Below are positions 22,924 through 62,491 of a DNA stretch of 64,000 nucleotides, one piece after another. The notes below the pieces were generated by a model that saw only the letters and a list, made by a program, of their open reading frames with translations, had not been told where the DNA came from and searched no databases. The position numbers and the translations under genes were made by a program. Source of the stretch: Candidatus Woesearchaeota archaeon (GTDB lineage: Archaea; Nanobdellota; Nanobdellia; SCGC-AAA011-G17; VGLX01); the NCBI GenBank assembly GCA_964428965.1, contig CAYSAF010000001.1:11242-75241 (forward strand), written 5' to 3'. Each line of letters opens with the position of its first letter. The first letter of the stretch is position 1.

Positions 22924-22950
22924 ATTTATTTGCATTCTAATGCTATCCTT

Positions 22951-48094: not shown

Positions 48095-49114
48095 ATGCAA
48101 GAAAAAGAAGCGATGCACTACAGGAAGGTAAAAGAGGGTATAGTACAGTGCCAACTGTGCCCCTGGTACTGTGTTATTAAAGAAAAGGAAAGAGGAAAAT
48201 GTGGAGTTAGGGAAAACAGAGAGGGAAAACTATACAGCCTGGTCTATGCAAGACCATGTGCAGTCAACGTAGACCCAATAGAAAAAAAGCCCTTATACCA
48301 CTTCCTGCCAGGAAGCATGTCATACTCCGTAGGGACTGTTGGATGCAACCTGTTCTGCCATCAATGTCAGAATTATACGACATCAAAAGCAAAACCAGAA
48401 GATGTCTTAAGTATGAAAATGGAACCAAACCAAGTTGTTGATAATGCAATAAAATCAAAATGCCAAAGTATTTCTTACACGTATAATGAGCCTACGATTC
48501 AATATGAGAATGTTTACGACACAGCAAAAATAGCAAAGAAGGAGAAAATAAAAAATGTGATGGTAACAAATGGATACATAAATGAGAAACCATTAAAAGA
48601 GCTGTACAAATACATTGATGCAGCTAATGTTGATTTGAAAGGATTCAGCGAAAAATTCTACAAGGAAGTGTGCGGAGTAAGACTAGAGCCTGTACTTAAC
48701 TCATTGAAGTTAATAAAGAAGATGAATTTGTGGCTAGAGATAACCAACTTGGTGATTCCAGGATACAATGACAACATGAAAATTATAAAAGAGATGTGTA
48801 AGTGGATAAAAAAGAATCTCAGTACAAATGTACCGCTGCACTTCTCAAGGTTCTACCCGTGCTACGAGATGATAGACACACCGATAACACCTATTGAAAC
48901 GTTAAAAAAAGCGTATGAAACAGCAAGGAATGAGGGAATAAAGTTTGTTTACATCGGCAATGTGGGAGCTGAAGGCGGATACTCTGATACGTTCTGCCCG
49001 AAATGTGGTGAGAGACTAATAAAAAGAGGCTCCTACTTCGGAGTTGAGTACAACAAAATAAGAAACGGGAAATGCTTCAACTGCAAAGAAAAAATACCAG
49101 GAGTGTGGAAGTAA
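48095..49114 (+). CDS. Radical SAM enzyme, AmmeMemoRadiSam/PflA-like
   Basis: 339 aa. N-terminal Cys cluster CQLCPWYCVIKEKERGKC. Radical-SAM CxxxCxxC (GCNLFCHQCQN). C-terminal Cys-rich tail. Confidence 0.7.
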   Translation: MQEKEAMHYRKVKEGIVQCQLCPWYCVIKEKERGKCGVRENREGKLYSLVYARPCAVNVDPIEKKPLYHFLPGSMSYSVGTVGCNLFCHQCQNYTTSKAKPEDVLSMKMEPNQVVDNAIKSKCQSISYTYNEPTIQYENVYDTAKIAKKEKIKNVMVTNGYINEKPLKELYKYIDAANVDLKGFSEKFYKEVCGVRLEPVLNSLKLIKKMNLWLEITNLVIPGYNDNMKIIKEMCKWIKKNLSTNVPLHFSRFYPCYEMIDTPITPIETLKKAYETARNEGIKFVYIGNVGAEGGYSDTFCPKCGERLIKRGSYFGVEYNKIRNGKCFNCKEKIPGVWK

Positions 49115-49888
49115 CTAATAACAAAAATCCAGATCATCCCTTAAACTTTTTATCCTCTCCTTAAAATCAGAATAGTAAGTGCCTTTAAAAACAGCTTCAG
49201 AAAACTTATCCAGCAAATCAGGATACTCCTTCATTAAAACATTCCTGATCCTAGGCCAATTGCCACCCTTGATGTTAAGCCTGTCAACCATTACATAGTC
49301 AACAAAACCAATTTTTTCCATAAGAACCTCAAGATCCTTATCGGTTATGTAAGGCAGGACAGGACCCAAAAAAACATAAGTGCCAATACCTGCCTTGTGG
49401 AACTTGCTTAAAGCATGAATCCTGTCCTCTACCGGAGAAGAGTTAGGCTCAAAATTCTTCCAGTCATTCAAACTTGTTATTGTCATTCCAACTTCTATCT
49501 CCTCAAACTCTTTGATTATATCAATATCTCTTGTTACAAGGGAGGATTTTGTTAGTATCGAGGGCTTAAAATCCTTTGGAAGGACATCCAAGATAGCCCT
49601 AGTAAGCTCATACTTACCTTCAACAGTTTGATAAGGATCTGTAACAGAGCTTAAGAAAATAGAACCATGCCTCCTTCTCTTCAATTCCTTCCTCAATACA
49701 GTAACCGCATTCGACTTAACATCAACAAAGCCACCCCACGCTTCCTTATGCTTTGTGTATTTAAGCATGAAACGAGCGTAGCAGTAAACACAGCTGTTGG
49801 AACAGCCAACATAGGGATTAATACAAAAATCAAAACCCAAACCTGTCCTGTTCAACAAAGATTTGCAGCTTATTTCTTTTACTATCAT
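49115..49888 (-). CDS. Radical SAM protein, SplB-like (spore-photoproduct-lyase / DNA repair photolyase family)
   Basis: 257 aa. CINPYVGCSNSCVYCYARF is a CxxxCxxC motif in the SplB-type context. Confidence 0.55.
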   Translation of the reverse strand: MIVKEISCKSLLNRTGLGFDFCINPYVGCSNSCVYCYARFMLKYTKHKEAWGGFVDVKSNAVTVLRKELKRRRHGSIFLSSVTDPYQTVEGKYELTRAILDVLPKDFKPSILTKSSLVTRDIDIIKEFEEIEVGMTITSLNDWKNFEPNSSPVEDRIHALSKFHKAGIGTYVFLGPVLPYITDKDLEVLMEKIGFVDYVMVDRLNIKGGNWPRIRNVLMKEYPDLLDKFSEAVFKGTYYSDFKERIKSLRDDLDFCY

Positions 49889-50946
49889 CTTATAAAATCC
49901 TTCAACCTTCTAATTGCATTAAGCCTGTCCTTATCCCCCATCTTAGCATTTTTAACAGCATCCTTTAAAAATTCTGTGTTGGAGTCCATAACTTTTCTTT
50001 TTACATTAAAAGGGACTCCGTCTTTCCCACCATGAGCAAACGAAAATTTGCTGGGGTCACACCAGCTTGACTTCGTTCCATAAACCAATTCCGAAATCAA
50101 TGCAAGAGCCCTTACAGAAGAAGGACCGACACCGTGTATTGCAATTAACTCTTCATAGTTTTTTGGCTGAAACTCGTAAGCCTTTTTTAAATAAGTCAAT
50201 GATTTTCTCGAGAGATTCAAGTTGTAATGGTTGCTGGTCATGTTTAAGACACGATTGAAGTCTCTTTCCAGATGCTCAGGATTATCCTTAACAAGGTCTA
50301 CTGAAATGCTCCTAGTTTCTGAGCTTTTCTTAGATGTTAAATCAAGAACCTCACTCTCTTTCTTATCACAGCATATAGCACTGTGAGGCTCTTCTATGAA
50401 GTTTTCAAAACCAGAAAGCCAGTGATAGCGCCTAGCATACCCAATCTTAGGATTCATGCCTTGCTGCACAACAGCATAACAACCGTTTTCAGAAAATACG
50501 AAGAAATGGGCATAGAGGTTATAATTGTCCTGTACCAGCGCACTATCCACCTTAGCTGACATCCTTGAAGCGTAAACAAGAGACTCAGACTTTTGGGAAG
50601 ATAAAGAAAGCTTTTCAGAATTAAACTCAATCTCAGAGGGAGTTTTTCTTGAGACTTTACCTTTGCCACCGCAAACCTTAATTCCCAACTCGTTACGGGT
50701 TAAGGCAACCTTCAAAGCGCCAAGAGTTGTTGTGGTTAATCCACTAGAATGCCAATCAAAGGCTAAAACACAACCCAATGCTTGGAAGAAGAAAGGATCT
50801 GAAATCCTCCTTATGAATTCAGCTTGACCATGTTCGTGCACTATGGTTTCAGCTATGGCACCACCTAAACCAGTCATCCTAGAAAAGAGCCACTTCGGAC
50901 ATGAACCAAAGTGAAGCGGTAAGCTGGCTGTACCTGTTTGGCGCAC
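49885..50946 (-). CDS. Conserved hypothetical protein (DUF763-like?)
   Basis: 353 aa. 4-nt overlap with the radical SAM gene. Family assignment from memory only. Confidence 0.4.
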   Translation of the reverse strand: MRQTGTASLPLHFGSCPKWLFSRMTGLGGAIAETIVHEHGQAEFIRRISDPFFFQALGCVLAFDWHSSGLTTTTLGALKVALTRNELGIKVCGGKGKVSRKTPSEIEFNSEKLSLSSQKSESLVYASRMSAKVDSALVQDNYNLYAHFFVFSENGCYAVVQQGMNPKIGYARRYHWLSGFENFIEEPHSAICCDKKESEVLDLTSKKSSETRSISVDLVKDNPEHLERDFNRVLNMTSNHYNLNLSRKSLTYLKKAYEFQPKNYEELIAIHGVGPSSVRALALISELVYGTKSSWCDPSKFSFAHGGKDGVPFNVKRKVMDSNTEFLKDAVKNAKMGDKDRLNAIRRLKDFIR

Positions 50947-51082
50947 ACCTTATTTATACAATCCAAATTTATAAACTCTCCTTGCACAAATGACGGGATG
51001 GCCACTGGTGTAATATATATTTTAGAGTATATAATACGGAACAAAAAATAATATTAATATTGTATGACCAATATATACTTGG

Positions 51083-51132
51083 AAAAAAAAGTTGCCTAGA
51101 TAATGGAACTAGGAACTCTAGACAACTTTTTT
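51083..51132. terminator. Hairpin flanked by oligo-T on both strands (bidirectional terminator). Ends the minus-strand cluster.
   Basis: AAAAAAAA-AGTTGCCTAGA-(loop)-TCTAGACAACT-TTTTTT. 11-bp stem with one mismatch. On the minus strand it is followed by T8, directly downstream of ORF 51182..51748. Confidence 0.45.
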
Positions 51133-51181
51133 AAAAGTGGTGAATATCAAAACTGCTAAGCTCAAGGAGCAAAAAAACAAA

Positions 51182-51748
51182 CTACCAGGAGTAAAGTTGT
51201 AACGAGACGCTACCTGAATATATCTCGTTACGGAAAGAACCCCCTACCATTTTACCCGTTGCCCTTATGGAGTCCTTCTTTTCGTTATAAGTCCCCTTTA
51301 CATCAATTGTTGCATCCCCAAGGATTGACCACACACCCTCGGGCATGTAATACCTATATGCCTCGCACTGGAGGATCGCATGGAACGTTTCCGTGGAGAT
51401 TTTAGTGGGGTTATACGAATAGACCGTTGCATAAATCCCCCACCAATACGGGTCCCAATTACTACACTCAATAAGGAACCCAGCTGGCTCAATCGTATCA
51501 GGGGTAGTGTAGTCCCCGTATAGATAGACTTCCATATACGGAGCATCACTACCGTACAACTCAAAATAGACAAACCCTTTGCCAGACATGGAAATCATCT
51601 GGGACTTAGCTTTTAACCCTGTTGTTGTTTCTACTTCTGATTCCAACTTGACCCTGACTCTCACGTCAGAGTCCCCATACCAGTCAGCGTTAGCATCTAC
51701 AGATGTTAACATCAGCACCATAGCCAATAAAGTTATTAGTTTCTTCAT
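51182..51748 (-). CDS. Secreted protein (signal peptide), cluster member
   Basis: 188 aa. MKKLITLLAMVLMLTSVDANA signal. Beta-rich and aromatic-rich. Confidence 0.5.
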   Translation of the reverse strand: MKKLITLLAMVLMLTSVDANADWYGDSDVRVRVKLESEVETTTGLKAKSQMISMSGKGFVYFELYGSDAPYMEVYLYGDYTTPDTIEPAGFLIECSNWDPYWWGIYATVYSYNPTKISTETFHAILQCEAYRYYMPEGVWSILGDATIDVKGTYNEKKDSIRATGKMVGGSFRNEIYSGSVSLQLYSW

Positions 51749-51979
51749 TTTTGAACCTCCTTCTTTTTAAGGTTTAAGATTTTAAGGTTTAAGAAAAATC
51801 TAAATCGCCTCAAGCCACCCAGTCCCCTCTCACCTCCTTTTATTAAAAATTCTTAAAAAATCATAGTTGGATTTAGAGAGACCTCCAGCACTCAGGTGGA
51901 GGAGGGGGTGTATGGGTACACCGTTTTCCACACCTGAATTTAGTGTGAAGGTCTCTGGTTTGTGATTATGATGATGAAC

Positions 51980-52564
51980 CTATCGATGATTTTGTTCTGA
52001 ACCTTTAAATTTGTAACTTACCAGCTGATCAACAATGTCGTAGTTTGTCTTGATGATTTTTACAAAATTTTTTACTTTTGGGGAATACCAACATTCTTCT
52101 TGAAACTCTTCCTGCTTTGTTGGTAGTGAATACTTTCTTAGTATCCTGAATGTATCAAAATCTCCTGCTGGTGTGCTAGCCCTTTCCTTCCCCTTTTTTA
52201 ATAATGGCCGCCAGTTGATTGTTAATGGCAAATATGTAGGTTCCTCTACAGTTCCATCAGGTTTTTCTATGCCTAAGTAGGTTAGTTCTGTTGTGAAATG
52301 TATGAAGCACTTGCTGAAGTCTTCATACATCTTTCCCTCTGCATCATAGAACTTGAGTTCTAACCTGTAGCTTCTTCTGCCTTGGAACTGTGATTTGCTA
52401 ACTACACTTACTGTATATGTGTATGAGAAATTTCCCTTGGTTGTTCTTTCATAGGTCCAACTGTCTCCTTCTTGCCAGAGAGGTTGTTTCTCTAACATTT
52501 GCGAGTTGGCAATTTCTATCGTGAAAGCTAGTATCATTATTGTGAAGAACAACGTTCTTTTCAT
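51980..52564 (-). CDS. Secreted protein, paralog of 52918..53550
   Basis: 194 aa. Signal MKRTLFFTIMILAFTIEIANS. Shared motifs with 52918..53550: W.EGD.WTY; AG.F.TFRI; WYSPKVKNFVK. Confidence 0.5.
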   Translation of the reverse strand: MKRTLFFTIMILAFTIEIANSQMLEKQPLWQEGDSWTYERTTKGNFSYTYTVSVVSKSQFQGRRSYRLELKFYDAEGKMYEDFSKCFIHFTTELTYLGIEKPDGTVEEPTYLPLTINWRPLLKKGKERASTPAGDFDTFRILRKYSLPTKQEEFQEECWYSPKVKNFVKIIKTNYDIVDQLVSYKFKGSEQNHR

Positions 52565-52590
52565 CTTTTCACCCCCTCATTTTTAGAAGT

Positions 52591-52908
52591 TTAGATTTTG
52601 AAAACTTTACTGACAATTTCTTGCGCTTCTAACTCCCTGATTTTCTTCTGTACAAGACCAGCGTACAAGAAGAACCTAGCACCGAGAGAAAAAAGCATGT
52701 AGCCAAGTATAGCAATAATTACAGAACCGGTAATAAAAACTGACAAAGCACTAATGCCAAACTCTCTTGTTAATGGCGTGGCCTTCCAAACCAACATCAT
52801 TATCGAAATAGATGATGTTATCAAAAGAAGCAAACCCACGAGTATTGTCACCACAGCAACAGTCCACCTAGTTAAGAACAGCCCATTCATCGCATCCTCC
52901 TTTCTCAT
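52591..52908 (-). CDS. Small membrane protein (3 TM)
   Basis: 105 aa, hydrophobic helices throughout. Confidence 0.45.
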   Translation of the reverse strand: MRKEDAMNGLFLTRWTVAVVTILVGLLLLITSSISIMMLVWKATPLTREFGISALSVFITGSVIIAILGYMLFSLGARFFLYAGLVQKKIRELEAQEIVSKVFKI

Positions 52909-52917
52909 TAATTTGAT

Positions 52918-53550
52918 TTACTTCAATTCAAAAGAGATAAGTTGTGTATCTAGAATTTTTATATTATCCCAGAAAGCTGTTTTTTCAACTTCCCTTTTAA
53001 CCCAATTTTTTGCCTCTGGCGCATACCAGTAACGAATCCAGCCCTCAGCCCTCCTACGGGACATAACACGTTGTTTTTCGTAAATCCTATAAGTCTTGAA
53101 GGTTCCTGCCTTCGTTGTAATCTCCTCAACACCCTCTACCCTGAACTCGTGAAGCCAATCCATAAAATCTGGTCCCACACTTATGCCGCTCCTTCTATCT
53201 GACCATTTCTTCCCAACAAATAGGGGGAAATCAAGCAGCTTTCTACCTCTGTACGTGGTATTTACTTGCTTACCCTCCTCAATCAAATACTTGGCGTTCA
53301 TGGTTTTCTTATCATAGGCGTACAAATTACGTCCTAACTTTACGACATACAAATCCCCTTTAACTTCTACAATTTCGGTGGTCGAAGTGCCGCCATTTAC
53401 ATCTTGGTAGGTCCACTTTTCCCCAACATTCCAGATTGGTGCTTCGCATTTTTCTTGGCTCCATGCAGGCAAAGTCAAGAGCTTAGAGATTAAACCGATT
53501 AAAATACAAGCCGAGAGTAGAATTAAACCGATTACAATAATTTTTTTCAT
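52918..53550 (-). CDS. Secreted protein, paralog of 51980..52564
   Basis: 210 aa. Signal/TM MKKIIVIGLILLSACILIGLI. W.VGEKWTY; AGTFKTYRI; WYAPEAKNWVK. Confidence 0.5.
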   Translation of the reverse strand: MKKIIVIGLILLSACILIGLISKLLTLPAWSQEKCEAPIWNVGEKWTYQDVNGGTSTTEIVEVKGDLYVVKLGRNLYAYDKKTMNAKYLIEEGKQVNTTYRGRKLLDFPLFVGKKWSDRRSGISVGPDFMDWLHEFRVEGVEEITTKAGTFKTYRIYEKQRVMSRRRAEGWIRYWYAPEAKNWVKREVEKTAFWDNIKILDTQLISFELK

Positions 53551-53821
53551 AAACTGTTTTCCTCCTTTTTAATAAATTTTTAATGTTAAAACAGCCTCCA
53601 CACCCGCCTCATTTTATTAACCGAACATGCGTTCGAATTGCACAAAACACAAAGTTGGAAAGATAACAGTTGGAAAAAGGACAAAAATAAGTATATTAAA
53701 AATTATTTTTTCATGGAACTCCTCCTTTTTGTGTTATACAATGTAGGAGGGAAGGCTGCATTTGAAAGCTCTTGGCCAGTTACTATCCCACCAGAGCGTA
53801 TGCACTTCCCTCCCGCTTCAT

Positions 53822-54148
53822 TTATCCTCTCTTGTTTCTTGGGGCAACTGCAACAGTCATATCTGCAGGCAATTGAACTATGGTGCCTGGAGGTTCACCA
53901 TTTGGGCCTTTTCCTTTTAATATGCGAACAGACATCACATTTACTCTCCCAGATCCAGATGCAAGAGGTACTGAAGAAACCTTTCCAGAGGTGATTTCTA
54001 TAGTTCCTTTGAGCCATCCCAATACCCTCTTCAGTGGAGCATCTTTCAAAGGTTTACTAGGACAAATAATAACATCCTTATCAAATTTAGAATTTCTAAA
54101 TTTTGGCATATTACCCTCCTCGATAATATTAAATGTAAAATTGTTCAA
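53822..54148 (-). CDS. Hypothetical protein (uncertain; competing + strand ORF 53638..53994)
   Basis: 108 aa. Orientation matches the cluster. Confidence 0.25.
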   Translation of the reverse strand: MNNFTFNIIEEGNMPKFRNSKFDKDVIICPSKPLKDAPLKRVLGWLKGTIEITSGKVSSVPLASGSGRVNVMSVRILKGKGPNGEPPGTIVQLPADMTVAVAPRNKRG

Positions 54149-54334
54149 CTCAGGTCCTAGTTCCCTCTCAATTGGCCTCTACTAAGGCCCTAATTTAAGT
54201 ATCATCATACCACCCCCTTTCTTTGCAAATATTGTAGTCAAAAGCAGAATCCTGCACAACCTTTAAAGTACGATCCTCTCTTCTAATGGCTAGAGCATCA
54301 AGGGTGCTTTAAGTTAATTAGCACTTCTTTATTC

Positions 54335-55114
54335 TTAAAAAATTCCAGCAATCTGGCGGCCAGCGGTTTCAATGAGACGTTGAGTGGCCTCGTTAACATT
54401 AAGGTTAACCTGAGCCGCTCTAGCAGCCACGGCAGCGTTATATATTTTAACGCCTTCCTTTGAACTCGAGACCTGACGGTGTGTTGTTTTAGAAGTGGGA
54501 GAATCTGGCTTAGTTCCCATACCGCCCATTGTCTTTCTCTCTGTAACAATCTCGGACTCGCGGACCTTCTGGCCTGTTATATCCTCTTCCGCAGATAATC
54601 TTTCGGTAATCTGGAAATCAATAACAATTATCTCGGTTCTAACTCGGGTAAGCAGATCAGCAGCCAGACCAACACCAGCTCCAATTGCACCGCCAACAGC
54701 AGCCCCACCAGCTCGATGGTGAGGTCCGCCTAATCCTAATCCCGCCAGTGCTCCTAATCCAGCCCCAGTTAAGGTATCCTGAAAATTCATCCCCTGTTTC
54801 CATTCTCCCAGATACCGAATATTTGTCTGCAAGATATAGGTGGCCTGCGAAGGTTTTTGAACAATCTGATAGCCCTTTGCCTGAATCCCAGGAAGGACTA
54901 TAGATTCAAAAGTCCCTGTAACATTTTGATTACTGCTTGTGTTCCGGATTTGAACATAGATTGTTTTTGCTGCCTCGGTTGGGGTAAGGAAAATTGATTC
55001 GCTCATGGCAACGTCTGTTTGCATCTTCCCATAATCAATCATCCGTATTGCTGCAGCACATCCAAATAGTATAACTACCGGCACAATCAACAAATACTTA
55101 ATCAATCTTTTCAT
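54335..55114 (-). CDS. Lipoprotein with a glycine-zipper (Rick_17kDa/YMGG-like) segment
   Basis: 259 aa. MKRLIKYLLIVPVVILFGCAAA carries a lipobox (LFGC). GAGLGALAGLGLGGP...GAAVGGAIGAGVGLAADLL is a Gly-zipper 2TM motif. Confidence 0.5.
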   Translation of the reverse strand: MKRLIKYLLIVPVVILFGCAAAIRMIDYGKMQTDVAMSESIFLTPTEAAKTIYVQIRNTSSNQNVTGTFESIVLPGIQAKGYQIVQKPSQATYILQTNIRYLGEWKQGMNFQDTLTGAGLGALAGLGLGGPHHRAGGAAVGGAIGAGVGLAADLLTRVRTEIIVIDFQITERLSAEEDITGQKVRESEIVTERKTMGGMGTKPDSPTSKTTHRQVSSSKEGVKIYNAAVAARAAQVNLNVNEATQRLIETAGRQIAGIF

Positions 55115-55254
55115 AAGTTTACCTCCTTTTTTTTTGTTAGATTAACGTATTTCTATGGAAATACCTTGAAAAAACAGCTTTTTCACCTATTCATAAACTT
55201 TTAATACAGGATGCTCTAACTTTTTAATTTTTGAAATGATAAATCTACTTTTAT

Positions 55255-55557
55255 TCAGTCACGGAATATCTTCGCCCTCTTCTTCTCTGAAGGGGGGTAT
55301 ACATCCAGACAACACATTACAATCAAGATAATTAAAAAGAAAATCCCGATTATACCACTACTAACTATCGTTGAATACCCCAAGTAAGCAATACCAAGCC
55401 GCGTTAGACGTACAAGATCCCACCAGGACATCCAGGCTGTGAACTCCCTCTGACCATTTAGGAAATCCTTAGCAAAAGGCAACAAAGTAAAGAACAGAGC
55501 GCTACAAGCGAGAGCAAATAACGCCACTTTTAACATGCTTTTTTCTTTTTTATCCAT
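55255..55557 (-). CDS. Small membrane protein (2-3 TM)
   Basis: 100 aa. LKVALFALACSALFFTLL...GIIGIFFLIILIVMCCL. Confidence 0.4.
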   Translation of the reverse strand: MDKKEKSMLKVALFALACSALFFTLLPFAKDFLNGQREFTAWMSWWDLVRLTRLGIAYLGYSTIVSSGIIGIFFLIILIVMCCLDVYPPSEKKRAKIFRD

Positions 55558-55751
55558 TTTTCCCCCTCCTTTCTAGAATTTTATTCCTTTTCTGTCATAA
55601 TTTGTATAAATCCAAGGATTGCAGGAAATGCCTTAAAAACTCTAATCACCACCAATCAATAAGATTTTTATCGTCGACAAACCAAGCATAGTATAAAAGC
55701 CCTAATACGATCATTATAATAATAACTTTTCCAGCCATCTTTTTCCCTCCT

Positions 55752-55952
55752 TTAATCTGTAATTTTTTTGTAGATAAAATAAAGTAATGATGCTACCAAG
55801 ATGAACGGCGCCACAAAAATGGATTTTAATTTGAAATGCTTATACATCTCGGGAATCAGTTCTAGGAAAACTTCCAAAAATATCTTCACTGATGACCCCA
55901 TCTCTGAAAGCTTGCCACAAAAACCCTTGAGCTTCATCGACCATCTCCCCAA
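55752..55952 (-). CDS. Small membrane protein (1 TM)
   Basis: 66 aa with a C-terminal TM (IFVAPFILVASLLYFIY). Confidence 0.3.
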   Translation of the reverse strand: MGRWSMKLKGFCGKLSEMGSSVKIFLEVFLELIPEMYKHFKLKSIFVAPFILVASLLYFIYKKITD

Positions 55953-56158
55953 TTCTTTATAACATGAATTTTCTCTGTCACGAATACCAGAGAGCCAAGA
56001 AGTAATGAAGTTGCCTCAACTAAAGATACACCAAGTTTGTTGGTAACCCCACGGAAGAATTTGTTCAAGTAGTAGTTCTCAAAGATGTTTGAAGGAAACG
56101 CGGTAGCCTTCGATGAGAGATTAAACAAAAAGGTTAAAACTTTTAACATGATTTTCAT
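55934..56158 (-). CDS. Small hypothetical protein
   Basis: 74 aa. 19-nt overlap with the downstream ORF. Confidence 0.3.
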   Translation of the reverse strand: MKIMLKVLTFLFNLSSKATAFPSNIFENYYLNKFFRGVTNKLGVSLVEATSLLLGSLVFVTEKIHVIKNWGDGR

Positions 56159-56173
56159 AGAGCCCTCCTCTTA

Positions 56174-56548
56174 TTAAATTTTTATTTTTTTCTCCTCTTT
56201 TTTCTCTTTCAAAAACTCCATGAACTCTTCTAAAATCTTTTTCTTCTCCTTATTTTTTTCTTTGTTTACCTCATTTAACATCTCCCTAATAGGATAGGGG
56301 GCTGTTACATCCGTTATGATATCAATCATAGCAGCCTCTACCCTTGCTTCAACCTGCTCACGTGTGTTGAAGAGAAGGATAAGTCCTTTCTTTTTGAAGG
56401 ACAAGTTAAGGGAATAATCCTCTGTATCTTGATACATATTAAGCATATCAATCTTGAAGAATGTTTCAGAAAATACCCCCCATACTAAACCAATTAGAAA
56501 AAATCCGATAGCAACAGCAGGATAACCAATAAGATGCCTTTTTTTCAT
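56174..56548 (-). CDS. Membrane-anchored protein (N-terminal TM + K/E-rich tail)
   Basis: 124 aa. IGYPAVAIGFFLIGLVWGVF. Confidence 0.4.
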   Translation of the reverse strand: MKKRHLIGYPAVAIGFFLIGLVWGVFSETFFKIDMLNMYQDTEDYSLNLSFKKKGLILLFNTREQVEARVEAAMIDIITDVTAPYPIREMLNEVNKEKNKEKKKILEEFMEFLKEKKEEKKIKI

Positions 56549-56632
56549 GTCTCACCTCCTCCGATTTTAATTCTTTAATTGTCTCAGTAAGGTTCTCTTT
56601 CATTTACTTCTTTCCTTTCTTGTTTTTTTATT

Positions 56633-57067
56633 CTACCAGTTATGGGCATCTTCCTTAGCCAAATCAGAATGGACTTCCCCCCATTTTCTTTCCCACTCAA
56701 TTCTCTTTTCTGCGTTTCCTATAGAGAATGCCACTTTTGCACACCATAATATCGGCATCAATATAGGAAGAACAAATCCACCACAGACTACAAAAAACCA
56801 GTACACCATTGACAATGCCCAGAAGGAGACTGCGATGAGAACAAACAAACCATTGTCAGGAAGTGGAGATAAAGAGTTCCAAAAGATTAATGACAATGGA
56901 AGCAAGGAAAGAAAACCCAACCATAAAGCTACCAAAATGATAAAGACAACAATGCTAAACAGAGCTTTGTATTTATCCTTCATATTCTTCACCTCCTTTG
57001 CTAAAAGAGATTTTGAAAGTTGAAACGTGATTGAATTAGCGCTCCTCGCAATCAACCCTATCAGCAA
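56633..57067 (-). CDS. Polytopic small membrane protein (3-4 TM)
   Basis: 144 aa. The start is probably the internal MKDKYKALFSIVVFIILVALWLGFL.... Confidence 0.4.
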   Translation of the reverse strand: MLIGLIARSANSITFQLSKSLLAKEVKNMKDKYKALFSIVVFIILVALWLGFLSLLPLSLIFWNSLSPLPDNGLFVLIAVSFWALSMVYWFFVVCGGFVLPILMPILWCAKVAFSIGNAEKRIEWERKWGEVHSDLAKEDAHNW

Positions 57068-57150
57068 TGTTGTAGACCTGATAAGGCATACCGCACTTCA
57101 GACAGATGAACACCATCTTAGTTTCCATGTCAACCTCTTGAGAAGAAGTT

Positions 57151-57495
57151 TTAATGAACCTGTATCAGAAGAGAGGGGAAAGCCCCAAGAATCCCTGTTA
57201 TGATTGTTAGGGCTAGAAGAATCTTCTCGCATACCTCCTCCCCTGCAAGAAAAGGAAAACTCAACTTATGCTTAATCTTTTGAAGATAAAAAGGAAGGAC
57301 CATCACAATCCAATAGGCAGCAAAAATAGCCATGAGCTTGAAAACAATTATTGACTGATAGATATCAAGATAAGAATTGTCATCGATAAACCTTATAATT
57401 ATGTTAGCTTCCTTAACAGTGCCGTTACGAATCCCGATGATAGTGAAAACAATATCAACAATTGTGACAAAAACAAAAAACATGAAAATTTTCAT
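57151..57495 (-). CDS. Polytopic small membrane protein (4 TM)
   Basis: 114 aa with four hydrophobic helices. Confidence 0.45.
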   Translation of the reverse strand: MKIFMFFVFVTIVDIVFTIIGIRNGTVKEANIIIRFIDDNSYLDIYQSIIVFKLMAIFAAYWIVMVLPFYLQKIKHKLSFPFLAGEEVCEKILLALTIITGILGAFPSLLIQVH

Positions 57496-57648
57496 TGATC
57501 ATCTCCTTTCTTACTTTTTAGAACTACGGTATTTAAGGCGGAAAACCCCATTTGTAAAGGTCTTTCCTCTCTGAAGATTAATTAAAAAGAATTTCAACAT
57601 ATTCCAAAATATATGAAAGCACAGCCCGAGTGGAAACTATAACAAAAA

Positions 57649-59733
57649 TTATAATTTCTGGCTTATTCCGGGGTTTTCCAGGCATTTAAGAGCAGAGTCT
57701 GTTGGTTTGAGAACCTTTTTCCAACCTTTCTCGTTCTTTAACGCCTCAACTTTCAGTAACCCCATGTCCACAAGTTTTTTCTTAAGTCTATCTCCTTTGC
57801 GAGGTGATAAACCTAGATACTTGTAAATTTGGCTTGTCCCGTATTGTGGGTTTTTGGATACGAAATCCAATAGGTTTTTTTGTGTTTTGTTTAGTGAACA
57901 TGAAACTGAAGTATCTTCATACTTAATTGATGGTATTACCTCTCCTATGACCCCTTTATTAATCTTTTGGTTACGTTGGGTAAGAACAACATGCACAACA
58001 GCCCTGTTAACGTCAGCATACTTGTAGCCAGAGTTAAGCAGGCTCTCCTTAATCAGCTTAAGGTTAAAGCCTTGGTCAAGCTGCTCATTTATGTATTCAA
58101 CCAAAAATTCTTGTATGTGATTCAGCAAAGCTCCTTTTGGAATTATAACGCGCTTGCCAGCCTTCAAAGCCTCTTCCCTCCTCTTGTTGTCCTCATCAAC
58201 AATCCTCTGGGAGTTAGTTACAAGCACTTCTTGCATCTGCTTGTAAGCATCACCTGTGTCAACGCCTGAAATCTTGAACACCTCATCAATACGCTTTAAC
58301 TCCTTAACAACCTTCTCAGGCTTTGAAGCATCCTTGAACCTCTCATACTTCTCCTTAACCGTGATTATCTTCTTCATGCGCTTAGCGACTGAGTCGTCAG
58401 TCACAGCCTCATTCTTCAGATCAACGAAAGGAACATCTATCAGGAATGGATCATAATAACGCTCGGCAAGCTTAACTATAGCCTGACCAACAGGAAGCAT
58501 AGAGAAGTACTTCTTCCTGTCCCTCAGCTGCATAATCCCGGAAACAGTCTCAACATCCTGGTAAAGCATCTGCTGGAATGCTATGTTACAAGCAGAGTTA
58601 CCTGCAACTGTATCACTCAACTTAGAGATGTGCTGGTCCAAACAGATCAGGCCTACACCGTACTCTCTTATCTCCCTGTAAACCATATCGGTAACAGATT
58701 CCTTGATGAAGTGAGGCCTCTCCTTAAGGAAGATGTTGTGAGCCTCGTCAACAAGAATAGCATTCTTAAAGCTCTCAGAAAAGCCCTCCTGGTTACACTT
58801 TTTTGACTTGTAAACGTAAGTAAGCAGGAACTCGCAGAAGAACTTCTTCTCGATATTAGACAAAGAGTTCAACTCGAAAATTACCTTCTTATCAAGCAGT
58901 TCCTCAACGGTGAGACCGAATCTATCCTTATGGTTAACAGCCTCGCCAAAAGGACCGAAAGTGAGAACGTGAGCAATCCTCAAGGCAGATGTCAACCATT
59001 CAGACTCACGACCCCTCCTCTTTAAGTTCTTTGACTTTTCATCAAGCCTGTCCTTAATCTGATACCAGGTCGGGTAGTTTTCAGAGCCTTCATAAACACC
59101 GAAGTCCCTAAAAGCCTCATCAAGGGTTTCAGACAAAAACTTATGGACACCGTAACTAGCGAAGAAGGATTCTGTAACCAAGTCACAAAGTGTGTTAAGC
59201 CACTCGTTAGGTGATACACCTTGAGGAGGCCTGTTAATGTTCAGCCTGAACAGGTTACTAACCCTCTCATTACCAACTGTGAAGAGCAAGACCTCCTTAT
59301 CTATAAGAGTTAAAGGCCTGAAGCTCTTCTTCCAGTCAAAAATTATGAACGGCTTGCCCTTCTCTATGAAGTTGTAGATTATGTGATAAGCAAGAGTTGT
59401 CTTACCTGAACCAGTCATACCAGAAATGCAGACGTGCCTGACCCAATCCTGCTCACGCAAGCAGAAAGGATGAAGCTTCTTGTCAGCATAGCTGACATAA
59501 GACAACGGATATTCGCCATCAACAACAGTCCTATGCGGTGGTTCTAAGAAAATCTTATCAGAAAGCAGGCTTTCACTAAGATAACTGTGATACAAAGCGC
59601 TTAAAGCCTGCTCAATCTCAGCCTTGGCCTCACGGGAATCAGCCATACGATACTTCAAGTAGAGCTGATCAATCCTAGAACCGAAAACAGGCCTAAGCTT
59701 CTTACAAATGTCCTCAACTGTTAAAGGTTCCAT
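57649..59733 (-). CDS. FtsK/HerA/VirB4-superfamily P-loop ATPase with a C-terminal winged-helix domain
   Basis: 694 aa. Walker A ISGMTGSGKTTLAYHI, then FIIFDWKKSF. Walker B ILVDEAHNIF. Sensor region GVGLICLDQHISKL. The C-terminal ~90 aa (LLDFVSKNPQYGTSQIYKYLGLSPRKGDRLKKKLVDMGLL) is wHTH-like. No TM segments. Confidence 0.65.
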   Translation of the reverse strand: MEPLTVEDICKKLRPVFGSRIDQLYLKYRMADSREAKAEIEQALSALYHSYLSESLLSDKIFLEPPHRTVVDGEYPLSYVSYADKKLHPFCLREQDWVRHVCISGMTGSGKTTLAYHIIYNFIEKGKPFIIFDWKKSFRPLTLIDKEVLLFTVGNERVSNLFRLNINRPPQGVSPNEWLNTLCDLVTESFFASYGVHKFLSETLDEAFRDFGVYEGSENYPTWYQIKDRLDEKSKNLKRRGRESEWLTSALRIAHVLTFGPFGEAVNHKDRFGLTVEELLDKKVIFELNSLSNIEKKFFCEFLLTYVYKSKKCNQEGFSESFKNAILVDEAHNIFLKERPHFIKESVTDMVYREIREYGVGLICLDQHISKLSDTVAGNSACNIAFQQMLYQDVETVSGIMQLRDRKKYFSMLPVGQAIVKLAERYYDPFLIDVPFVDLKNEAVTDDSVAKRMKKIITVKEKYERFKDASKPEKVVKELKRIDEVFKISGVDTGDAYKQMQEVLVTNSQRIVDEDNKRREEALKAGKRVIIPKGALLNHIQEFLVEYINEQLDQGFNLKLIKESLLNSGYKYADVNRAVVHVVLTQRNQKINKGVIGEVIPSIKYEDTSVSCSLNKTQKNLLDFVSKNPQYGTSQIYKYLGLSPRKGDRLKKKLVDMGLLKVEALKNEKGWKKVLKPTDSALKCLENPGISQKL

Positions 59734-60217
59734 CGTTCTCCTTTACAAAGATTATATCATCAAAAACAGCAGCCCTAGTTTCCTTATCTTTAAACTCCCT
59801 AACCCTCTCTCTCAACTCTCTCTTAAGCTCAGCAACATCACGCCACTTGTTCACCTTCTCCTGAATCTTAACTTCATCAATCTCAACCTGCTTCTGCCTC
59901 ATCAGAAGCTGCTCCCTAGTGTTTGTGGAATCAGCCAGGGAGGTGACAAAGTTGTTAATATCCATCTTAACCTGATCAACATCACGAAGAATTTCCTTAT
60001 GCAAGACCTCCCTCTGAACCATCAAAGCCTGAATGTCCTCAATGAGCTCCTTTATCGAGAGCACCTTCTCATCCTGAAGGGCTTTGAAAAGCGCATCCTT
60101 CTGAGCGTTAAATTCCTTAAGCTTCTCACTAGGCTTAACTTCAGAAGGCCTGGCCTTCTCATCCTTCACGATTTCCCCCATGAAACCTTTCCTCAAATTC
60201 TTCATTTTTATCATCAC
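59714..60217 (-). CDS. Coiled-coil protein, first gene of the ATPase cluster
   Basis: 167 aa, K/E-rich heptad-like sequence. 20-nt overlap with the ATPase start. Confidence 0.45.
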   Translation of the reverse strand: MMIKMKNLRKGFMGEIVKDEKARPSEVKPSEKLKEFNAQKDALFKALQDEKVLSIKELIEDIQALMVQREVLHKEILRDVDQVKMDINNFVTSLADSTNTREQLLMRQKQVEIDEVKIQEKVNKWRDVAELKRELRERVREFKDKETRAAVFDDIIFVKENDGTFNS

Positions 60218-60596
60218 TTTATAATGGTAAATTATGCTTTTTTATATGATATACCCCCTTTATATACTTTTTGGTTTTCCCAGGGTCTTCCGTGTTCTTT
60301 CCGGGTTTTCCAGTGTTTTAGCAAAGCGCTTAAAGTATAAAAAAATGATTATCTTGCAGCATACAATCCATCAGCCTTAAACATCAAGAGCCAACAACTT
60401 TGACCTGCTCCGAGTTTCTTAAAACAAAGATACAAAGAGGTAAAGCATCAACACAGGTAAGCATTCTTTTACCAGCGGTTTTGCAGATTAACACATTAAC
60501 CAACTCCAGAAGCCGAATCTAGCCTCACCAAAAGAAAAAAAACCAAAACCTTTATAAACAAAAGAATTCGAGAAAAAAAGAAGTCATAATAACTAG

Positions 60597-61898
60597 GTGG
60601 AGGAATCAAATATGGCAAGACAAAAACCACACATAAACATAGTTTTTGTAGGTCACGTAGACCACGGAAAGTCTACAACAGTCGGTAGATTGATCTATGA
60701 TTCAGGCGGAATCGATGAGCAGACCATGAGAAAGCTGACAGAAACAGCAAAACAGGTAGGCAAGCCTGGTTTCGAATTCGCATTCATCATGGACCAGCTC
60801 AAAGAAGAAAGAGAAAGGGGACTGACAATAGACCTGATGCACAGAAAATTCGTAACAGACAAATTCGAGTACACAATAATTGACGCACCGGGACACAAAG
60901 ACTTCGTCAAAAACATGATCACTGGGGCAAGCCAGGCAGACGTAGCCTTCTTGGTAGTTGCTGCTGCAGAAGGAGTGATGGAACAAACCAAGGAACACGC
61001 GTGGCTATGCAGAACGCTTGGAGTGCAACAACTGGGTGTCATCGTAAACAAGATGGACACGATAAACTACGACGAAGCAAAGTTCAAGAAAGTAAAAGAA
61101 GAAGTCTCAAATCTGCTGAAAGGGATAGGCTACAAGCTGGAAGAAGTTCCATTCATACCAGTAGCAGCCCTCAAAGGAGACAACGTAGCAAAGAAATCAG
61201 ACAAGATGCCATGGTACAAGGGACCAACGATAAGAGAGCAACTAGACCTATTCAAAGAACCTGAAAAACCAGTTAACCTACCATTGAGACTACCCATCCA
61301 AGACGTGTTTAACATCACGGGAATAGGAGTAGTTCCAGTAGGAAGGGTAGAAACAGGAGTAATGAAGGTCGGCGACAACGTAATAATAGTGCCAGCAAGA
61401 GAAGGAAGAGGGGTGACTGGAGAGGTAAAGTCAATAGAGATGCACCACGAACAAATCCCAGAAGCGATACCTGGAGACAACGTAGGATTCAACATAAGGG
61501 GTATTGGAAAGAAGGACATAACGAGGGGAGACGTTCTGGGGCATGTAGACAACCCCCCAATAGTTGTTTCAGAATTCACGGCACAAATAGTGATACTAAA
61601 CCACCCAACCGTCGTCACTGCTGGTTACACACCAGTATTCCACGTGCACACAGCACAGGTGGCATGCCAACTAGTTGAGATAGAAAAACAACTAGACCCA
61701 ACAACAGGCACTGTGATAAAAGAACACCCGGACTTCATAAAGACAGGACAGGCAGCCATAGTGAAGATAAAACCAACCAAGCCATTAGTCATTGAAAAGT
61801 ACAAGGACATACCACAGATGGCAAGGTTCGCTGTTAGGGATGCCGGAGCAACAGTCGCTGCAGGAATGTGCATAGACCTGGTCAAAAAACCACTTTAA
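60597..61898 (+). CDS. tuf: Translation elongation factor 1-alpha (aEF-1A)
   Basis: 433 aa. [17 protein letters not shown] and NKMD GTPase motifs. The start may be the internal [11 protein letters not shown] (60612). Confidence 0.9.
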
Positions 61899-61959
61899 CT
61901 TTTTCTTTCCCTTTTTTTAATAACAAATTTTATAAAGCCATCAAAACTTAGACAAGAAC

Positions 61960-62268
61960 ATGCCAAAAGCGAGAATAAAACTAGCGAGCACGGAGATAGA
62001 CAAGCTGAACGAGATATGTGGCTCAATAAAAGAGATAGCAGAAAAGACAAAAGTAAAGATGTCAGGACCCATCCCAATACCGACGCAGAGGCTGAAAATA
62101 ACTACGAGGAGAAGCCCTTGCGGTGACGGAAAGGCAAGCTTCGAGAACTACGAGATGAGAATACACAAAAGACTAATAGACTTGGGCGTAGATGAAAGGG
62201 CTTTGAGGCTGATAATGAGGGTGCCCATACCAGAAGGCGTCTCGATAGAAATAGAGATGAAGGACTGA
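61960..62268 (+). CDS. rps10: Ribosomal protein S10
   Basis: 102 aa. [39 protein letters not shown]...RRSPCGDG...HKRLIDL. Sits in the canonical tuf-rps10 arrangement. Confidence 0.9.
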
Positions 62269-62307
62269 TTCTCAAAACTTATTAAGCAATAATTCCTAAA
62301 ATTAATC

Positions 62308-62457
62308 ATGAAAAAGAAAGCAGAATACGAAAAAGTGACAATAACATGCGCTGCGTGCGGCAAGAAGATGAGGATGGTCAAACACAAGAGTCTGGACTTC
62401 AAGGGGATGCTGTGCCAGAAGTGCAGCATGCAATCAGAAAAATCTGACCATGATTAA
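62308..62457 (+). CDS. Small zinc-ribbon protein
   Basis: 49 aa (below the ORF-track cutoff). MKKKAEYEKVTITCAACGKKMRMVKHKSLDFKGMLCQKCSMQSEK has CxxC...CxxC. Confidence 0.3.
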   Translation: MKKKAEYEKVTITCAACGKKMRMVKHKSLDFKGMLCQKCSMQSEKSDHD

Positions 62458-62458
62458 G

Positions 62459-62467
62459 TTTATAAAA
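62459..62467 (+). promoter_or_regulatory. TATA-like box (tttataaaa) about 29 nt upstream of the tRNA
   Basis: Position and sequence fit an archaeal tRNA promoter. Confidence 0.35.
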
Positions 62468-62491
62468 AGAAAAGAAAACATAATTCTCGAA

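Follow-up and report, generated by a model that had tools for sequence, protein, structure and literature searches.

The 14 open reading frames (ORFs) that run in one direction along the minus strand from 60217 to 51182, in the 64,000-nt stretch of DNA analyzed here (the window), are divided into two layers, a conserved pair of genes encoding a coiled-coil protein and an ATPase and a variable island of small genes. We favor, at a probability of about 0.55, the reading that the pair is a conserved, uncharacterised cytoplasmic motor module and that the small genes form a separate, hypervariable envelope island of the 'dark-matter' kind, and a single, fixed membrane machine is probably not what the cluster encodes. 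The original prediction had described a tight minus-strand array that contains an ATPase with recognizable motifs, membrane and signal-peptide proteins, and one paralogue pair, and that ends at a hairpin followed by T8. ORF, hydropathy, and sequence analyses bore out the array, its transmembrane (TM) and signal-peptide assignments, and its end, where a terminator-like inverted repeat with 16-nt arms followed by T8 (51085..51132; all features given here are on the minus strand), located by repeat search and sequence reading, starts approximately 50 nt past the last stop codon. The ORFs listed were as described, except that one probable gene, w10, had been missed. Overall, the observation was partly confirmed, and the interpretation built on it, that of a DNA-transfer machine, was partly supported.

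The module opens with a gene for a 167-aa coiled-coil protein (59714..60217), whose end overlaps the start of the ATPase gene (57649..59733) by 20 nt. The predicted helical hairpin of the coiled-coil protein bears the motif ELQLNEKINCWRDIAxLKKELRE, and R69, E120, D127, L131, and R136 are invariant in the alignment of its homologues. The family comprises 133 clusters at 50% identity, short proteins throughout, and the protein gave no significant match in Pfam, NCBIfam, or PDB sequences. The 694-aa ATPase had been placed in the FtsK-HerA superfamily near VirB4 and HerA as a soluble protein with Walker A and B motifs and a C-terminal wHTH, and this placement held. Its domains are arranged in the order of an N-terminal helical domain, a DptH/VirB4-like P-loop core (aa ~75-440), a variable helical linker, and a MarR-type wHTH (aa ~616-686), and hydropathy analysis found no TM segment. 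Across the 20 ATPase homologues aligned, neither Walker A (GMTGSGKT at aa 105-112, nt 59398-59421) nor Walker B (ILVDEAH at aa 326-332, nt 58738-58758) varies, and overall identity is 45-80% among the homologues listed, with the catalytic motifs invariant. A coiled-coil homologue lies directly upstream of the ATPase in 41 of the 56 loci fetched, all loci with the pair are labelled Woese-, Pace-, or Nanoarchaeota, and EF-1alpha/S10 genes often lie near the module, as in the window and in three relatives (L001, L005, and L062). The module is conserved across many tiny DPANN archaea.

Comparing folds, the ATPase is nearest to DptH and VirB4, followed by HerA and TrwB. FtsK also combines a motor with a winged helix (gamma), but the ATPase of the window lacks the N-terminal membrane domain, its core is nearer to the VirB4/DptH/HerA clade, and its wHTH is MarR-like and not gamma-like. 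The original prediction had named a HerA paired with a NurA-like nuclease as the alternative identity. The ATPase does not belong to such a pair, which is a helicase-nuclease for DNA end-resection: no HAS barrel was modelled at the N-terminus of the ATPase, no NurA, Mre11, or Rad50 was detected by Pfam in the flanking genes and the ten larger window ORFs, and the partner is a coiled-coil protein.

The nearest-fold comparison for the core is with DptH (DndH), from the DndFGH phosphorothioation-dependent restriction system, and with mad8 of MADS. In this context, the wHTH-bearing ATPase could work on DNA at or near the island, either as a DNA-scanning motor for defence or surveillance like those of DptH and MADS, or as a factor in regulation or recombination through which the island becomes a hot spot of replacement. 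The ATPase bears a predicted DNA-binding wHTH, the hot spot of replacement adjoins it, PADLOC reported mad8 at 42 bits together with HerA defence models, and the nearest bacterial relatives of the ATPase, at 34% identity and lacking the wHTH, are encoded beside DNA methylases and a TIR effector. However, these PADLOC scores are weak, and no methylase, nuclease, or effector partner was found, the partner being the coiled-coil protein. DptH is a very large multidomain protein in a defence operon, whereas the present ATPase is 694 aa long with a wHTH and a coiled-coil partner, is widely conserved in one archaeal lineage, and has no adjacent Dnd or methylase genes. Considering that such conservation and synteny, at 45-80% identity across named Woese-, Pace-, and Nanoarchaeota and near EF-1alpha, are rare for defence genes, we regard a role of this kind as doubtful.

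The second layer, the island (51024..57583), spans ~6.5 kb and contains 12 small genes, w03 to w14. When the window was compared by blastn with three relatives (L001, L062, and L061), positions 57584-62599 and 47666-51023 aligned at 66-83% identity, and nothing aligned between them. In relatives whose flanks align and whose ATPases are 75-80% identical, the slot is occupied by wholly different genes; in L061, matching flanks (DUF763, two radical-SAM genes, and PolX) enclose another array, similar in size, in which CsgF and CsgG are encoded. When the 12 small proteins were searched for by BLASTP and phmmer in 56 related loci, only w05, in one locus, and w10, weakly, were matched. Island content is thus swapped wholesale between close relatives. 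Across loci, the most widespread family downstream of the ATPase occurs in at most 7 of 43, polytopic families occur in at most 3 each, Pfam analysis of 230 downstream proteins found no recurring family beyond six matches to N_methyl, and no VirB6/CedA-like or VirB2-like family was found to recur downstream. A conserved neighbourhood of small ORFs, which the original prediction had taken as the opposite of chance juxtaposition, was not found at the sequence level in the related loci, although 'chance juxtaposition' is too strong a term given the enrichment of TM proteins described below.

Archaeal dark-matter islands, as surveyed by Makarova et al. (2014, PMC4158269), are clusters of small, narrowly distributed genes that evolve fast, vary from one close relative to the next, and encode an excess of membrane and secreted proteins. 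HerA-like ATPases (arCOG00280) rank among their commonest annotated genes, and DPANN genomes lay outside that survey. The likeness to the present locus is in the small, variable genes for membrane and secreted proteins beside a HerA-like ATPase. In contrast, the ATPase here is a conserved, syntenic, and lineage-wide marker of the island edge and not a sporadic gene of mobile elements. The whole array might alternatively be an integrated mobile element or provirus, with the ATPase as its packaging or transfer enzyme, since FtsK/HerA-type ATPases are a hallmark of membrane-containing viruses and conjugative elements, the ATPase matched the PHROG 'terminase large subunit' at 49.6 bits, and orphans are numerous among the small membrane ORFs. 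This is very improbable, because the ATPase and coiled-coil genes lie in conserved chromosomal synteny in many genomes, variability is confined to the part downstream of the ATPase, Pfam and PHROG searches found no integrase, capsid, or replication gene in the array, and no att-like flanking direct repeats were found at the island ends. There was only one weak match in IMG/VR, and viral contigs are essentially free of the pair. The window as a whole does contain an integrase, at 26217-28013 inside a separate low-GC element, so that the absence of an integrase claimed in the original prediction is correct for the cluster and not for the window.

Most island genes were assigned to classes by hydropathy. 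The 114-aa w03 (57151..57495) has three TM segments and belongs to the DUF5658 family (Pfam PF18902, 28.9 bits, above the 25.2 cut-off), with no homologue in the 56 related loci. The polytopic w04 (56633..57067), 144 aa long, or 117 aa if an internal ATG is used as the start, has ~4 TM segments in two long hydrophobic blocks and is an orphan with no match in Pfam, NCBIfam, or PHROG. The 124-aa w05 (56174..56548), which consists of an N-terminal TM anchor (one TM segment) and a Lys/Glu-rich tail, alone among the island proteins is clearly homologous to a protein of a relative (44% identity in L001, E=8e-28); relatives of w04 and w05 were not found in JGI metagenome contigs. Two mini-proteins follow, w06 (55934..56158; 74 aa, one TM segment) and w07 (55752..55952; 66 aa, TTG start, TM segment at the C-terminus), the latter of uncertain coding status, and neither has homologues in the 56 related loci. 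The 100-aa w08 (55255..55557) has two TM segments. The probable w10 (53822..54109), a predicted soluble protein of ~95 aa, was called as a 95-aa gene in an independent assembly (L057) and was weakly matched by tblastn in L061 (E=2e-4) and L001 (E=2e-3), with PLKDAPLKK and SGRI motifs common to the alignment. The 105-aa w12 (52591..52908) has two to four TM segments and no homologues in the 56 related loci, and the last gene, w14 (51182..51748), encodes a 188-aa protein with a signal peptide that belongs to no recognizable family in Pfam, NCBIfam, or PHROG.

The remaining three genes encode proteins of bacterial type. The 259-aa lipoprotein w09 (54335..55114), with the lipobox LFG|C and a Gly-zipper helix region, matched Pfam PF05818 (TraT) end to end at 149 bits against a cut-off of 31 (E=2e-43) and matched solved TraT structures (9fs5 at E=1.4e-17). 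Judged by its sequence, w09 is a true TraT-family protein. It shares the lipobox and Gly-rich helix region with TraT of IncF plasmids and its chromosomal homologues, and aligns to the protomers of the solved TraT decamer, but it is encoded in the chromosome of an archaeon that has no outer membrane, with no tra operon. A published survey found TraT in Gram-negative bacterial phyla only (PMC11733297). The AF2 model of w11 (52918..53550), an exported 210-aa beta-barrel protein with a signal-peptide-like N-terminus, reached a pLDDT of 91, and Foldseek matched it to putative lipoproteins of Bacteroidales and to E. coli YmcC (E=7e-6 to 7e-5). The exported 194-aa w13 (51980..52564) likewise has a signal-peptide-like N-terminus and is a paralogue of w11 (BLASTP, 27% identity, E=1e-10), as had been proposed for two of the three signal-peptide proteins. 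Both scored under the cut-off of 27 for Pfam DUF3108_like (23.3 bits for w11 and 20.1 bits for w13), and, based on the model, they are predicted to have a bacterial YmcC/DUF3108-like fold. The claim that only the ATPase is recognizable was therefore mistaken, as w09, w03, and the w11/w13 pair could all be assigned.

Relatives of w09 at 59-84% identity are found in two bacterial chromosomes (L060 and L065) and a phage-like contig (L059), while the nearest relatives of w11 are at most 52% identical and one of them adjoins haem-biosynthesis genes. Based on the TraT relatives and the bacterial lipoprotein fold of w11, part of the island genes were taken from bacteria. Considering that the closest TraT relatives are bacterial or on a phage-like contig and that the source genome is a MAG, the TraT and YmcC-like genes could in principle be non-archaeal, introduced by chimeric assembly or binning contamination. 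This is extremely improbable. Archaeal genes flank the island on both sides in the order seen in relatives, so that two precise chimeric junctions would be needed, and a sister genome has other bacterial envelope genes (CsgF/CsgG) in the slot. Furthermore, two independent ENA assemblies repeat the arrangements w08-TraT (L058, where a gene identical to w08 adjoins the TraT gene) and TraT-w10-w11 at 99.8-100% identity.

The two layers are separated by a spacer of 153 nt (57496..57648), in which sequence reading found a T5 run right after the ATPase stop codon, a GGAG ribosome-binding site, and a TTAAATA box ~35 nt ahead of the ATG of w03. Across loci, the gap between the ATPase and the next gene on the same strand has a median of 183 nt, compared with 64 nt inside the arrays. 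Considering the T5 run and the 153-nt spacer with its TTAAATA box, there is no evident sign that the ATPase and the array are transcribed together, and the island probably has its own promoter and is transcribed apart from the ATPase, the promoter and terminator being called from sequence motifs only.

Although the downstream genes differ, their class recurs. TM proteins make up 60% of those in the 6 kb downstream of the ATPase compared with 25% upstream (43 loci; Fisher p=5e-17), and the downstream share exceeds the upstream share in 20 of the 25 loci where both sides have enough genes (Wilcoxon p=0.001); these p-values overstate independence, as the loci are phylogenetically related, and the upstream control regions, which contain housekeeping genes, may give too low a figure for membrane proteins in the genome at large. 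ORFs on the ATPase strand account for 82% downstream and 52% upstream, and many loci encode, downstream, small proteins with two TM segments and proteins of 180-320 aa with 4-8. Enrichment across many divergent loci goes beyond simple adjacency and hints at a functional link between the ATPase and membrane proteins. In a looser form of the original prediction, the ATPase may be the motor of an apparatus built from the downstream proteins, for DNA transfer like Ced, Ted, or T4SS or for other secretion, possibly with swappable, fast-evolving membrane parts. The co-directional membrane proteins, the recurrent size classes, and the presence in the window of TraT, from a family of surface-exclusion proteins of conjugation, are consistent with this. 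The absence of detectable homology among the small membrane proteins is weak evidence against a machine shared by distant lineages, because the components of Ced and Ted have no sequence similarity to one another (PMC9905601).

We nevertheless consider an apparatus unlikely, since relatives with 75-80% identical ATPases share no membrane proteins, which is hard to square with co-evolving contacts between motor and channel, and polytopic families are each confined to at most three loci. In some loci (L007, L018, and L035), TM genes downstream of the ATPase are few or missing, the spacer of the window resembles a promoter or terminator region, the island proteins bear ordinary Sec or lipoprotein signals, and TraT homologues on chromosomes are often found outside tra operons (PMC11733297). 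The ATPase also differs from VirB4, CedB, CedD, and TedB, as it has no TM segment, lacks a VirB4-type N-terminal domain in the model, carries an additional MarR-type wHTH, and scores far under the NCBIfam cut-offs, at roughly one tenth or less (CedD, 67 vs 600 bits; VirB4, 16 vs 643 bits). Moreover, it has no conserved partner like the VirB6/CedA channel or the VirB2/CedA1 pilin, and the membrane genes beside it give way to others from one close relative to the next. The coherent multi-component Ced/T4SS-like machine of the original prediction is thus unsupported by component conservation across related loci. Variable downstream cassettes, of effector and immunity genes, are also found at the EssC/EccC loci of type VII secretion, where EssC has a membrane anchor and ATPase domains in tandem, and exports substrates that have no Sec signals. 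The present ATPase, in contrast, is soluble with a single ATPase domain, and its neighbours carry Sec or lipoprotein signals.

Taken all together, the reading we favor is that of a conserved motor module beside a separate envelope island. The first layer would be a vertically inherited cytoplasmic module in which the coiled-coil protein is translationally coupled to the P-loop ATPase. By analogy with the proteins nearest to it in structure, the ATPase would most likely form a ring that moves along or pumps nucleic acid at the expense of ATP, with the wHTH tethering or directing it on DNA and the coiled-coil protein serving as an adaptor or regulator. The second layer would begin 153 nt downstream and supply small membrane proteins, the TraT lipoprotein, the two YmcC-like exported barrels, and another secreted protein, all presumably exported by the general Sec and lipoprotein routes and not by the ATPase, given their ordinary signal peptides, lipobox, or TM helices. 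The wholesale replacement of the island and its bacterial genes would fit a fast turnover of surface proteins, which may be selected by host contact, viruses, or incoming DNA.

The array of co-directional ORFs spans 60217 to 51182 on the minus strand in the window ORF list, and its physical layout was essentially right in the original prediction, as the ORF list and hydropathy gave a minus-strand array of membrane, signal-peptide and lipobox proteins with a paralogue pair and a hairpin followed by T8. The array begins with a 167-aa coiled-coil protein (59714-60217), the stop of which overlaps by 20 nt the start of the second gene, encoding a 694-aa ATPase (57649-59733), and no TM segment was predicted in either protein by the hydropathy scan. 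After a spacer of 153 nt (57496-57648) follow twelve small genes, denoted as w03 to w14 downstream from the ATPase. Based on a hydropathy threshold, w03 (114 aa), a DUF5658 protein in Pfam, has 3 TM segments, w04 (144 aa) has two long hydrophobic blocks corresponding to about 4 TM segments, w05 (124 aa), w06 (74 aa) and w07 (66 aa) have one each, and w08 (100 aa) and w12 (105 aa) have 2 or more. The others are w09 (259 aa, 54335-55114), a TraT-family protein with a lipobox (LFG before the cysteine), w10 (about 95 aa, 53822-54109), a small soluble protein, and w11 (210 aa), w13 (194 aa) and w14 (188 aa), which have signal-peptide-like N-termini. With 27% identity (E=1e-10), w11 and w13 form a paralogue pair. 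An inverted repeat with 16-nt arms followed by T8 lies at 51085-51132.

When the ATPase was compared with Pfam, it matched DUF87, the HerA central domain, with 40.5 bits, along with weak P-loop matches. The best NCBIfam match was CedD at 67.4 bits (cut-off 600), and VirB4_CagE and TraC scored 15.8 bits (cut-off 643) and 18.1 bits (cut-off 567), respectively. The proposed relation to VirB4 and HerA holds at the superfamily level, with no full-length family assignment. Walker A and Walker B with the catalytic Glu, and a RecA-like core resembling solved members, place the protein in the FtsK-HerA superfamily, and both Walker motifs and many further positions are invariant in aligned homologues. 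In the AF2 model, built on 20 homologues with a mean pLDDT of 78, three helices (residues 1-60) are followed by one β-hairpin (residues 75-92), and the HAS β-barrel is absent from the N-terminus. While HerA carries an N-terminal HAS β-barrel and is partnered by NurA, often with Mre11/Rad50, the partner upstream of this ATPase is the coiled-coil protein, and no NurA, Mre11 or Rad50 was found in Pfam scans of the flanking genes and ten larger window ORFs. Because no HAS barrel is modelled and the scanned genes include no NurA, the HerA-NurA reading was rejected. VirB4, CedB and CedD have a VirB4 N-terminal domain or TM helices, in contrast with the window ATPase. The ATPase is thus a soluble FtsK-HerA-superfamily member that belongs to the DptH/VirB4/HerA clade and carries a fused wHTH; strictly speaking, it falls outside the HerA-NurA, VirB4 and Ced families. 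The motor probably acts on DNA, judging from its wHTH and from its relatives among the DNA translocases.

A defence function would fit the similarities of the ATPase to DptH and MADS and the position of its bacterial relatives beside methylases and TIR, but this reading is weakened by the strong conservation of the module, and effector partners were not found. The nearest bacterial relatives, with 34% identity and no wHTH, come from Ignavibacteriales and Zixibacteria MAGs (locus L045, 262-4728; locus L046, 7723-11683), where they adjoin N6/N4 DNA methylases and a response-regulator-TIR protein in a context resembling a defence island.

The homology search returned at least 770 relatives of the ATPase, and the 120 listed share 45-80% identity and, where named, belong to Woese-, Pace- or Nanoarchaeota. 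A scan with one genome per species gave 50 loci. With all 14 window proteins as BLASTP queries, a coiled-coil homologue was found directly upstream of the ATPase in 41 fetched loci. In the coiled-coil alignment, a helical hairpin bearing the motif ELQLNEKINCWRDIAxLKKELRE is conserved, and in an exhaustive search the family comprised only 133 clusters at 50% identity, with short proteins throughout; no PDB sequence was matched significantly in a profile search (lowest E=0.11). EF-1α/S10 lie near the module in the window and in three comparison loci (L001, L005 and L062), and IMG/VR contained a single weak match. Based on the pairing, the synteny, the lineage spread and the near-absence from IMG/VR, the coiled-coil protein and ATPase are a chromosomal two-gene module that is inherited vertically and is not a mobile-element gene. 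The ATPase with its dedicated partner appears specific to one large DPANN lineage; a literature search, in which subscription papers were possibly missed, returned no relevant paper on this ATPase family in DPANN.

The genes downstream of the module behave differently. In blastn, 57584-62599 and 47666-51023 of the window align with relatives at 66-83% identity, and 51024-57583, which holds the twelve small genes, gave no nucleotide alignment to them. In the relative represented by locus L061, the ATPase is 77% identical and the downstream flank is as in the window (DUF763, two radical-SAM genes and PolX), while the slot of ~6.4 kb between them contains different small proteins together with CsgF and CsgG. 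When the twelve island proteins were searched against 56-62 related loci using BLASTP (E<1e-3), phmmer (E<5) and tblastn, the only matches were a w05 homologue in L001 (44% identity) and weak ones for w10, so that, at the sequence level, the small ORFs are not conserved as a neighbourhood. w03 and w04 had no homologues among the related loci by BLASTP and phmmer, w04 and an alignment of w05 had no relatives in JGI metagenome contigs, and PHROGs, PADLOC and NCBIfam searches with the island proteins recovered TraT and nothing further. Nine of the twelve genes are family-less, and every one of the twelve except one encodes a TM segment, a signal peptide or a lipobox. The island consists of small, fast-evolving and narrowly distributed genes, is rich in membrane and secreted proteins, and is replaced as a whole stretch in relatives, as in the definition of dark-matter islands (PMC4158269). 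Such islands have been described for other archaea, with HerA-like ATPases among their most frequent annotated neighbours (PMC4158269); the present island is of this kind, its proteins carrying ordinary export signals. The element weakly common to three islands is w10 alone (window 53822-54109; L061 8375-8656; L001 13120-13524), with the motifs PLKDAPLKK, SGRI and GxGPNG, and it matches no known family.

A provirus or ICE is unlikely and was rejected, since no integrase or recombinase, att repeats, replication or capsid genes are present in 51-60 kb, the viral collection IMG/VR gave no more than the one weak match, and synteny is kept. No direct repeats were found flanking the island.

Elsewhere in the window, a low-GC block at 15400-28100 (genes of 0.28-0.37 GC, compared with about 0.40-0.45 elsewhere) resembles a mobile element that has integrated. 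Its genes encode a D5-like primase-helicase (17051-18313), several small membrane proteins (19423-21988), a secreted SNase-LTD nuclease (22951-24333) and a tyrosine integrase (26217-28013). On the other side of the array, the similarity to L001 and L062 stops at 62599, one base past the 3' end (62598) of a 107-nt tRNA at 62492-62598 that was called by Rfam and not by ARAGORN and probably contains an intron. Because similarity ends at this tRNA (the breakpoint in L062 is at ~4127) and a tyrosine integrase and an AEP-type primase lie just past the breakpoint in L001 (4507-5888), the tRNA looks like an integration hot spot. Next to it, a nucleotidyltransferase (62667-63215; wHTH and Pol-β NTase) overlaps by 8 nt a 158-aa partner (63208-63684) with no significant Pfam match, and the pair at 62667-63684 resembles a minimal NTase/HEPN-type toxin-antitoxin pair.

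Among the island proteins, w09 matched PF05818 (TraT) with 149 bits (cut-off 31), covering profile positions 2-214 of 214, and it matched the solved TraT decamer protomers 9fs5 and 9e2v with E about 1e-17. As its score against PRK13731, the NCBIfam plasmid TraT equivalog, was only 82 bits (cut-off 445), w09 is, judged from its profile matches, a member of the TraT family and not the plasmid orthologue. Its N-terminus, MKRLIKYLLIVPVVILFG followed by C, is a lipoprotein signal with the lipobox cysteine. Known TraT is an outer-membrane decamer that acts in surface exclusion and is encoded in the tra operon, whereas no tra genes were found adjacent to w09 in Pfam scans of neighbouring genes and the host is an archaeon; archaea have no outer membrane. 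The relatives of w09, at 59-84% identity, are from bacterial chromosomes, a phage-like contig or named Deltaproteobacteria. They lie in DnaA/DnaN/PBP (L060) and NusG/L11/PolIII-α (L065) contexts on bacterial chromosomes, on a phage-like contig with DNA polymerase A, UDG and QueC/PTPS genes (L059), and, in the case of the closest relative at 84% (L063), among metabolic genes. Such relatives in bacterial chromosomes and a phage-like contig, at 68-84% identity, suggest a recent inter-domain or virus-mediated transfer. The arrangements w08-TraT and TraT-w10-w11 recur in two independent assemblies with 99.8-100% identity, and an assembly artefact is unlikely to be the source of the island genes. 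A previous survey reported TraT in Gram-negative phyla only (PMC11733297), and the archaeal protein widens the family accordingly. Where the window has TraT, L061 has CsgF and the curli secretion channel lipoprotein CsgG (5521-6859), so that two different bacterial ring-forming outer-membrane lipoproteins occupy equivalent positions in archaeal hosts. No relevant paper on TraT or CsgG in DPANN was returned by the literature search, subscription papers possibly being missed.

Against Pfam DUF3108_like (cut-off 27), w11 and w13 reached only 23.3 and 20.1 bits, respectively. The w11 model has a pLDDT of 91 and matches 4fvs, 3fzx and YmcC (2in5) in Foldseek with E=7e-6 to 7e-5, at TM-scores of only 0.38-0.51. 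On this model, w11 is predicted to be a YmcC/DUF3108-like barrel as in bacterial lipoproteins; its nearest relatives are at most 52% identical, and one is in a haem-biosynthesis context. Considering the TraT and YmcC-like cargo with bacterial relatives, the island is a mosaic with bacterial acquisitions.

To compare the surroundings of the ATPase, we counted ORFs of at least 60 aa in 43 non-redundant loci. Within 6 kb downstream, 189/317 carried at least one TM segment, compared with 67/266 upstream (Fisher p=5e-17). The loci in this comparison are phylogenetically related, genes were called crudely as the longest non-overlapping ORFs, TM segments were called with a hydropathy threshold, and housekeeping genes are common in the upstream controls. 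Of the 25 loci that had sufficient genes both upstream and downstream, 20 showed a higher TM share downstream (Wilcoxon p=0.001), and 82% of downstream ORFs were on the ATPase strand versus 52% upstream. When 340-370 downstream ORFs were clustered by BLASTP single-linkage and phmmer, the largest family spanned 7/43 loci and polytopic families at most 3/43, and no VirB6/CedA-like polytopic channel family was conserved with the ATPase. Many downstream ORFs encode small proteins (52-100 aa) with 2 TM segments, which form no detectable family, a helical hairpin alone not being diagnostic. Pfam matches over 230 downstream proteins were scattered singletons (e.g. CsgG, CsgF, TonB_C, LysM and PKD), the sole recurrent family being N_methyl (6 proteins confined to two loci). 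In these two loci, tandem type IV pilin-like genes with the GFTL[IV]E motif lie in the downstream array (L014, 12471-14362; L041, 9563-9952), a bacterial-type signal that is unusual for archaea. Because the motif scan found bacterial-type pilins only there, a type IV pilus was rejected as an account of the arrays in general.

From the ATPase to the following gene on its strand, the median distance is 183 nt, compared with 64 nt inside arrays. In the window, a T5 run lies directly 3' of the ATPase stop, and there is a TTAAATA box ahead of w03. All of this speaks against a fixed machine. Counts of σ70 promoters and intrinsic terminators equalled the shuffle expectation, the scan being uninformative for an archaeon. 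In about 12 of 42 loci (L031, L024, L038, L025, L019, L020, L026, L036, L017, L041, L032 and L016), the coding strand in the 120 nt right after the ATPase stop is A+C-rich, at 68-85% versus 50% background, with CAAACA-like repeats. This stretch could be a G/T-poor leader or RNA element; the window has no such enrichment (41%).

Taken together, the Ced- or T4SS-like machine of the original prediction is not supported, as no conserved channel or pilin family was detected, the membrane genes are swapped and the ATPase lacks a membrane domain. The evidence best supports a conserved cytoplasmic motor module adjoining a separately evolving envelope-gene island. No family recurs and membrane genes are completely replaced beside near-identical motors, which argues against a fixed machine, but a looser functional link between motor and island is kept alive by the class-level enrichment of TM-bearing, co-directional genes downstream of the ATPase, and the Ced and Ted systems show that components can lose all sequence similarity (PMC9905601). 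In its boldest form, to which we give roughly one chance in seven, the coiled-coil protein and wHTH-ATPase would be the conserved cytoplasmic engine of an undescribed envelope system of DPANN (Woese-, Pace- and Nanoarchaeota), with interchangeable membrane and surface cassettes including captured bacterial ring-forming lipoproteins (TraT here, CsgG/CsgF in the sister genome), and would transport DNA or another cargo through the envelope at contact with a host or neighbour.

A life attached to other cells is assumed for DPANN archaea, and to our knowledge the ways in which they make contact with their partners, feed on them and exchange DNA with them are poorly understood. The locus offers two handles, an uncharacterised and strongly conserved motor-like ATPase with a predicted DNA-binding domain and a coiled-coil partner, which is open to biochemistry, and a fixed chromosomal site with rapid envelope-gene turnover and uptake of bacterial surface lipoproteins, its bacterial-type surface cargo comprising TraT and YmcC-like barrels in the window and CsgG/CsgF in a relative. 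The locus also warns that conservation should be checked before a gene array is read as a machine. If motor and island are functionally linked, they would define an archaeal surface system of a new type; otherwise, the site would still be a clear case of a hot spot at which surface genes are replaced in reduced genomes.
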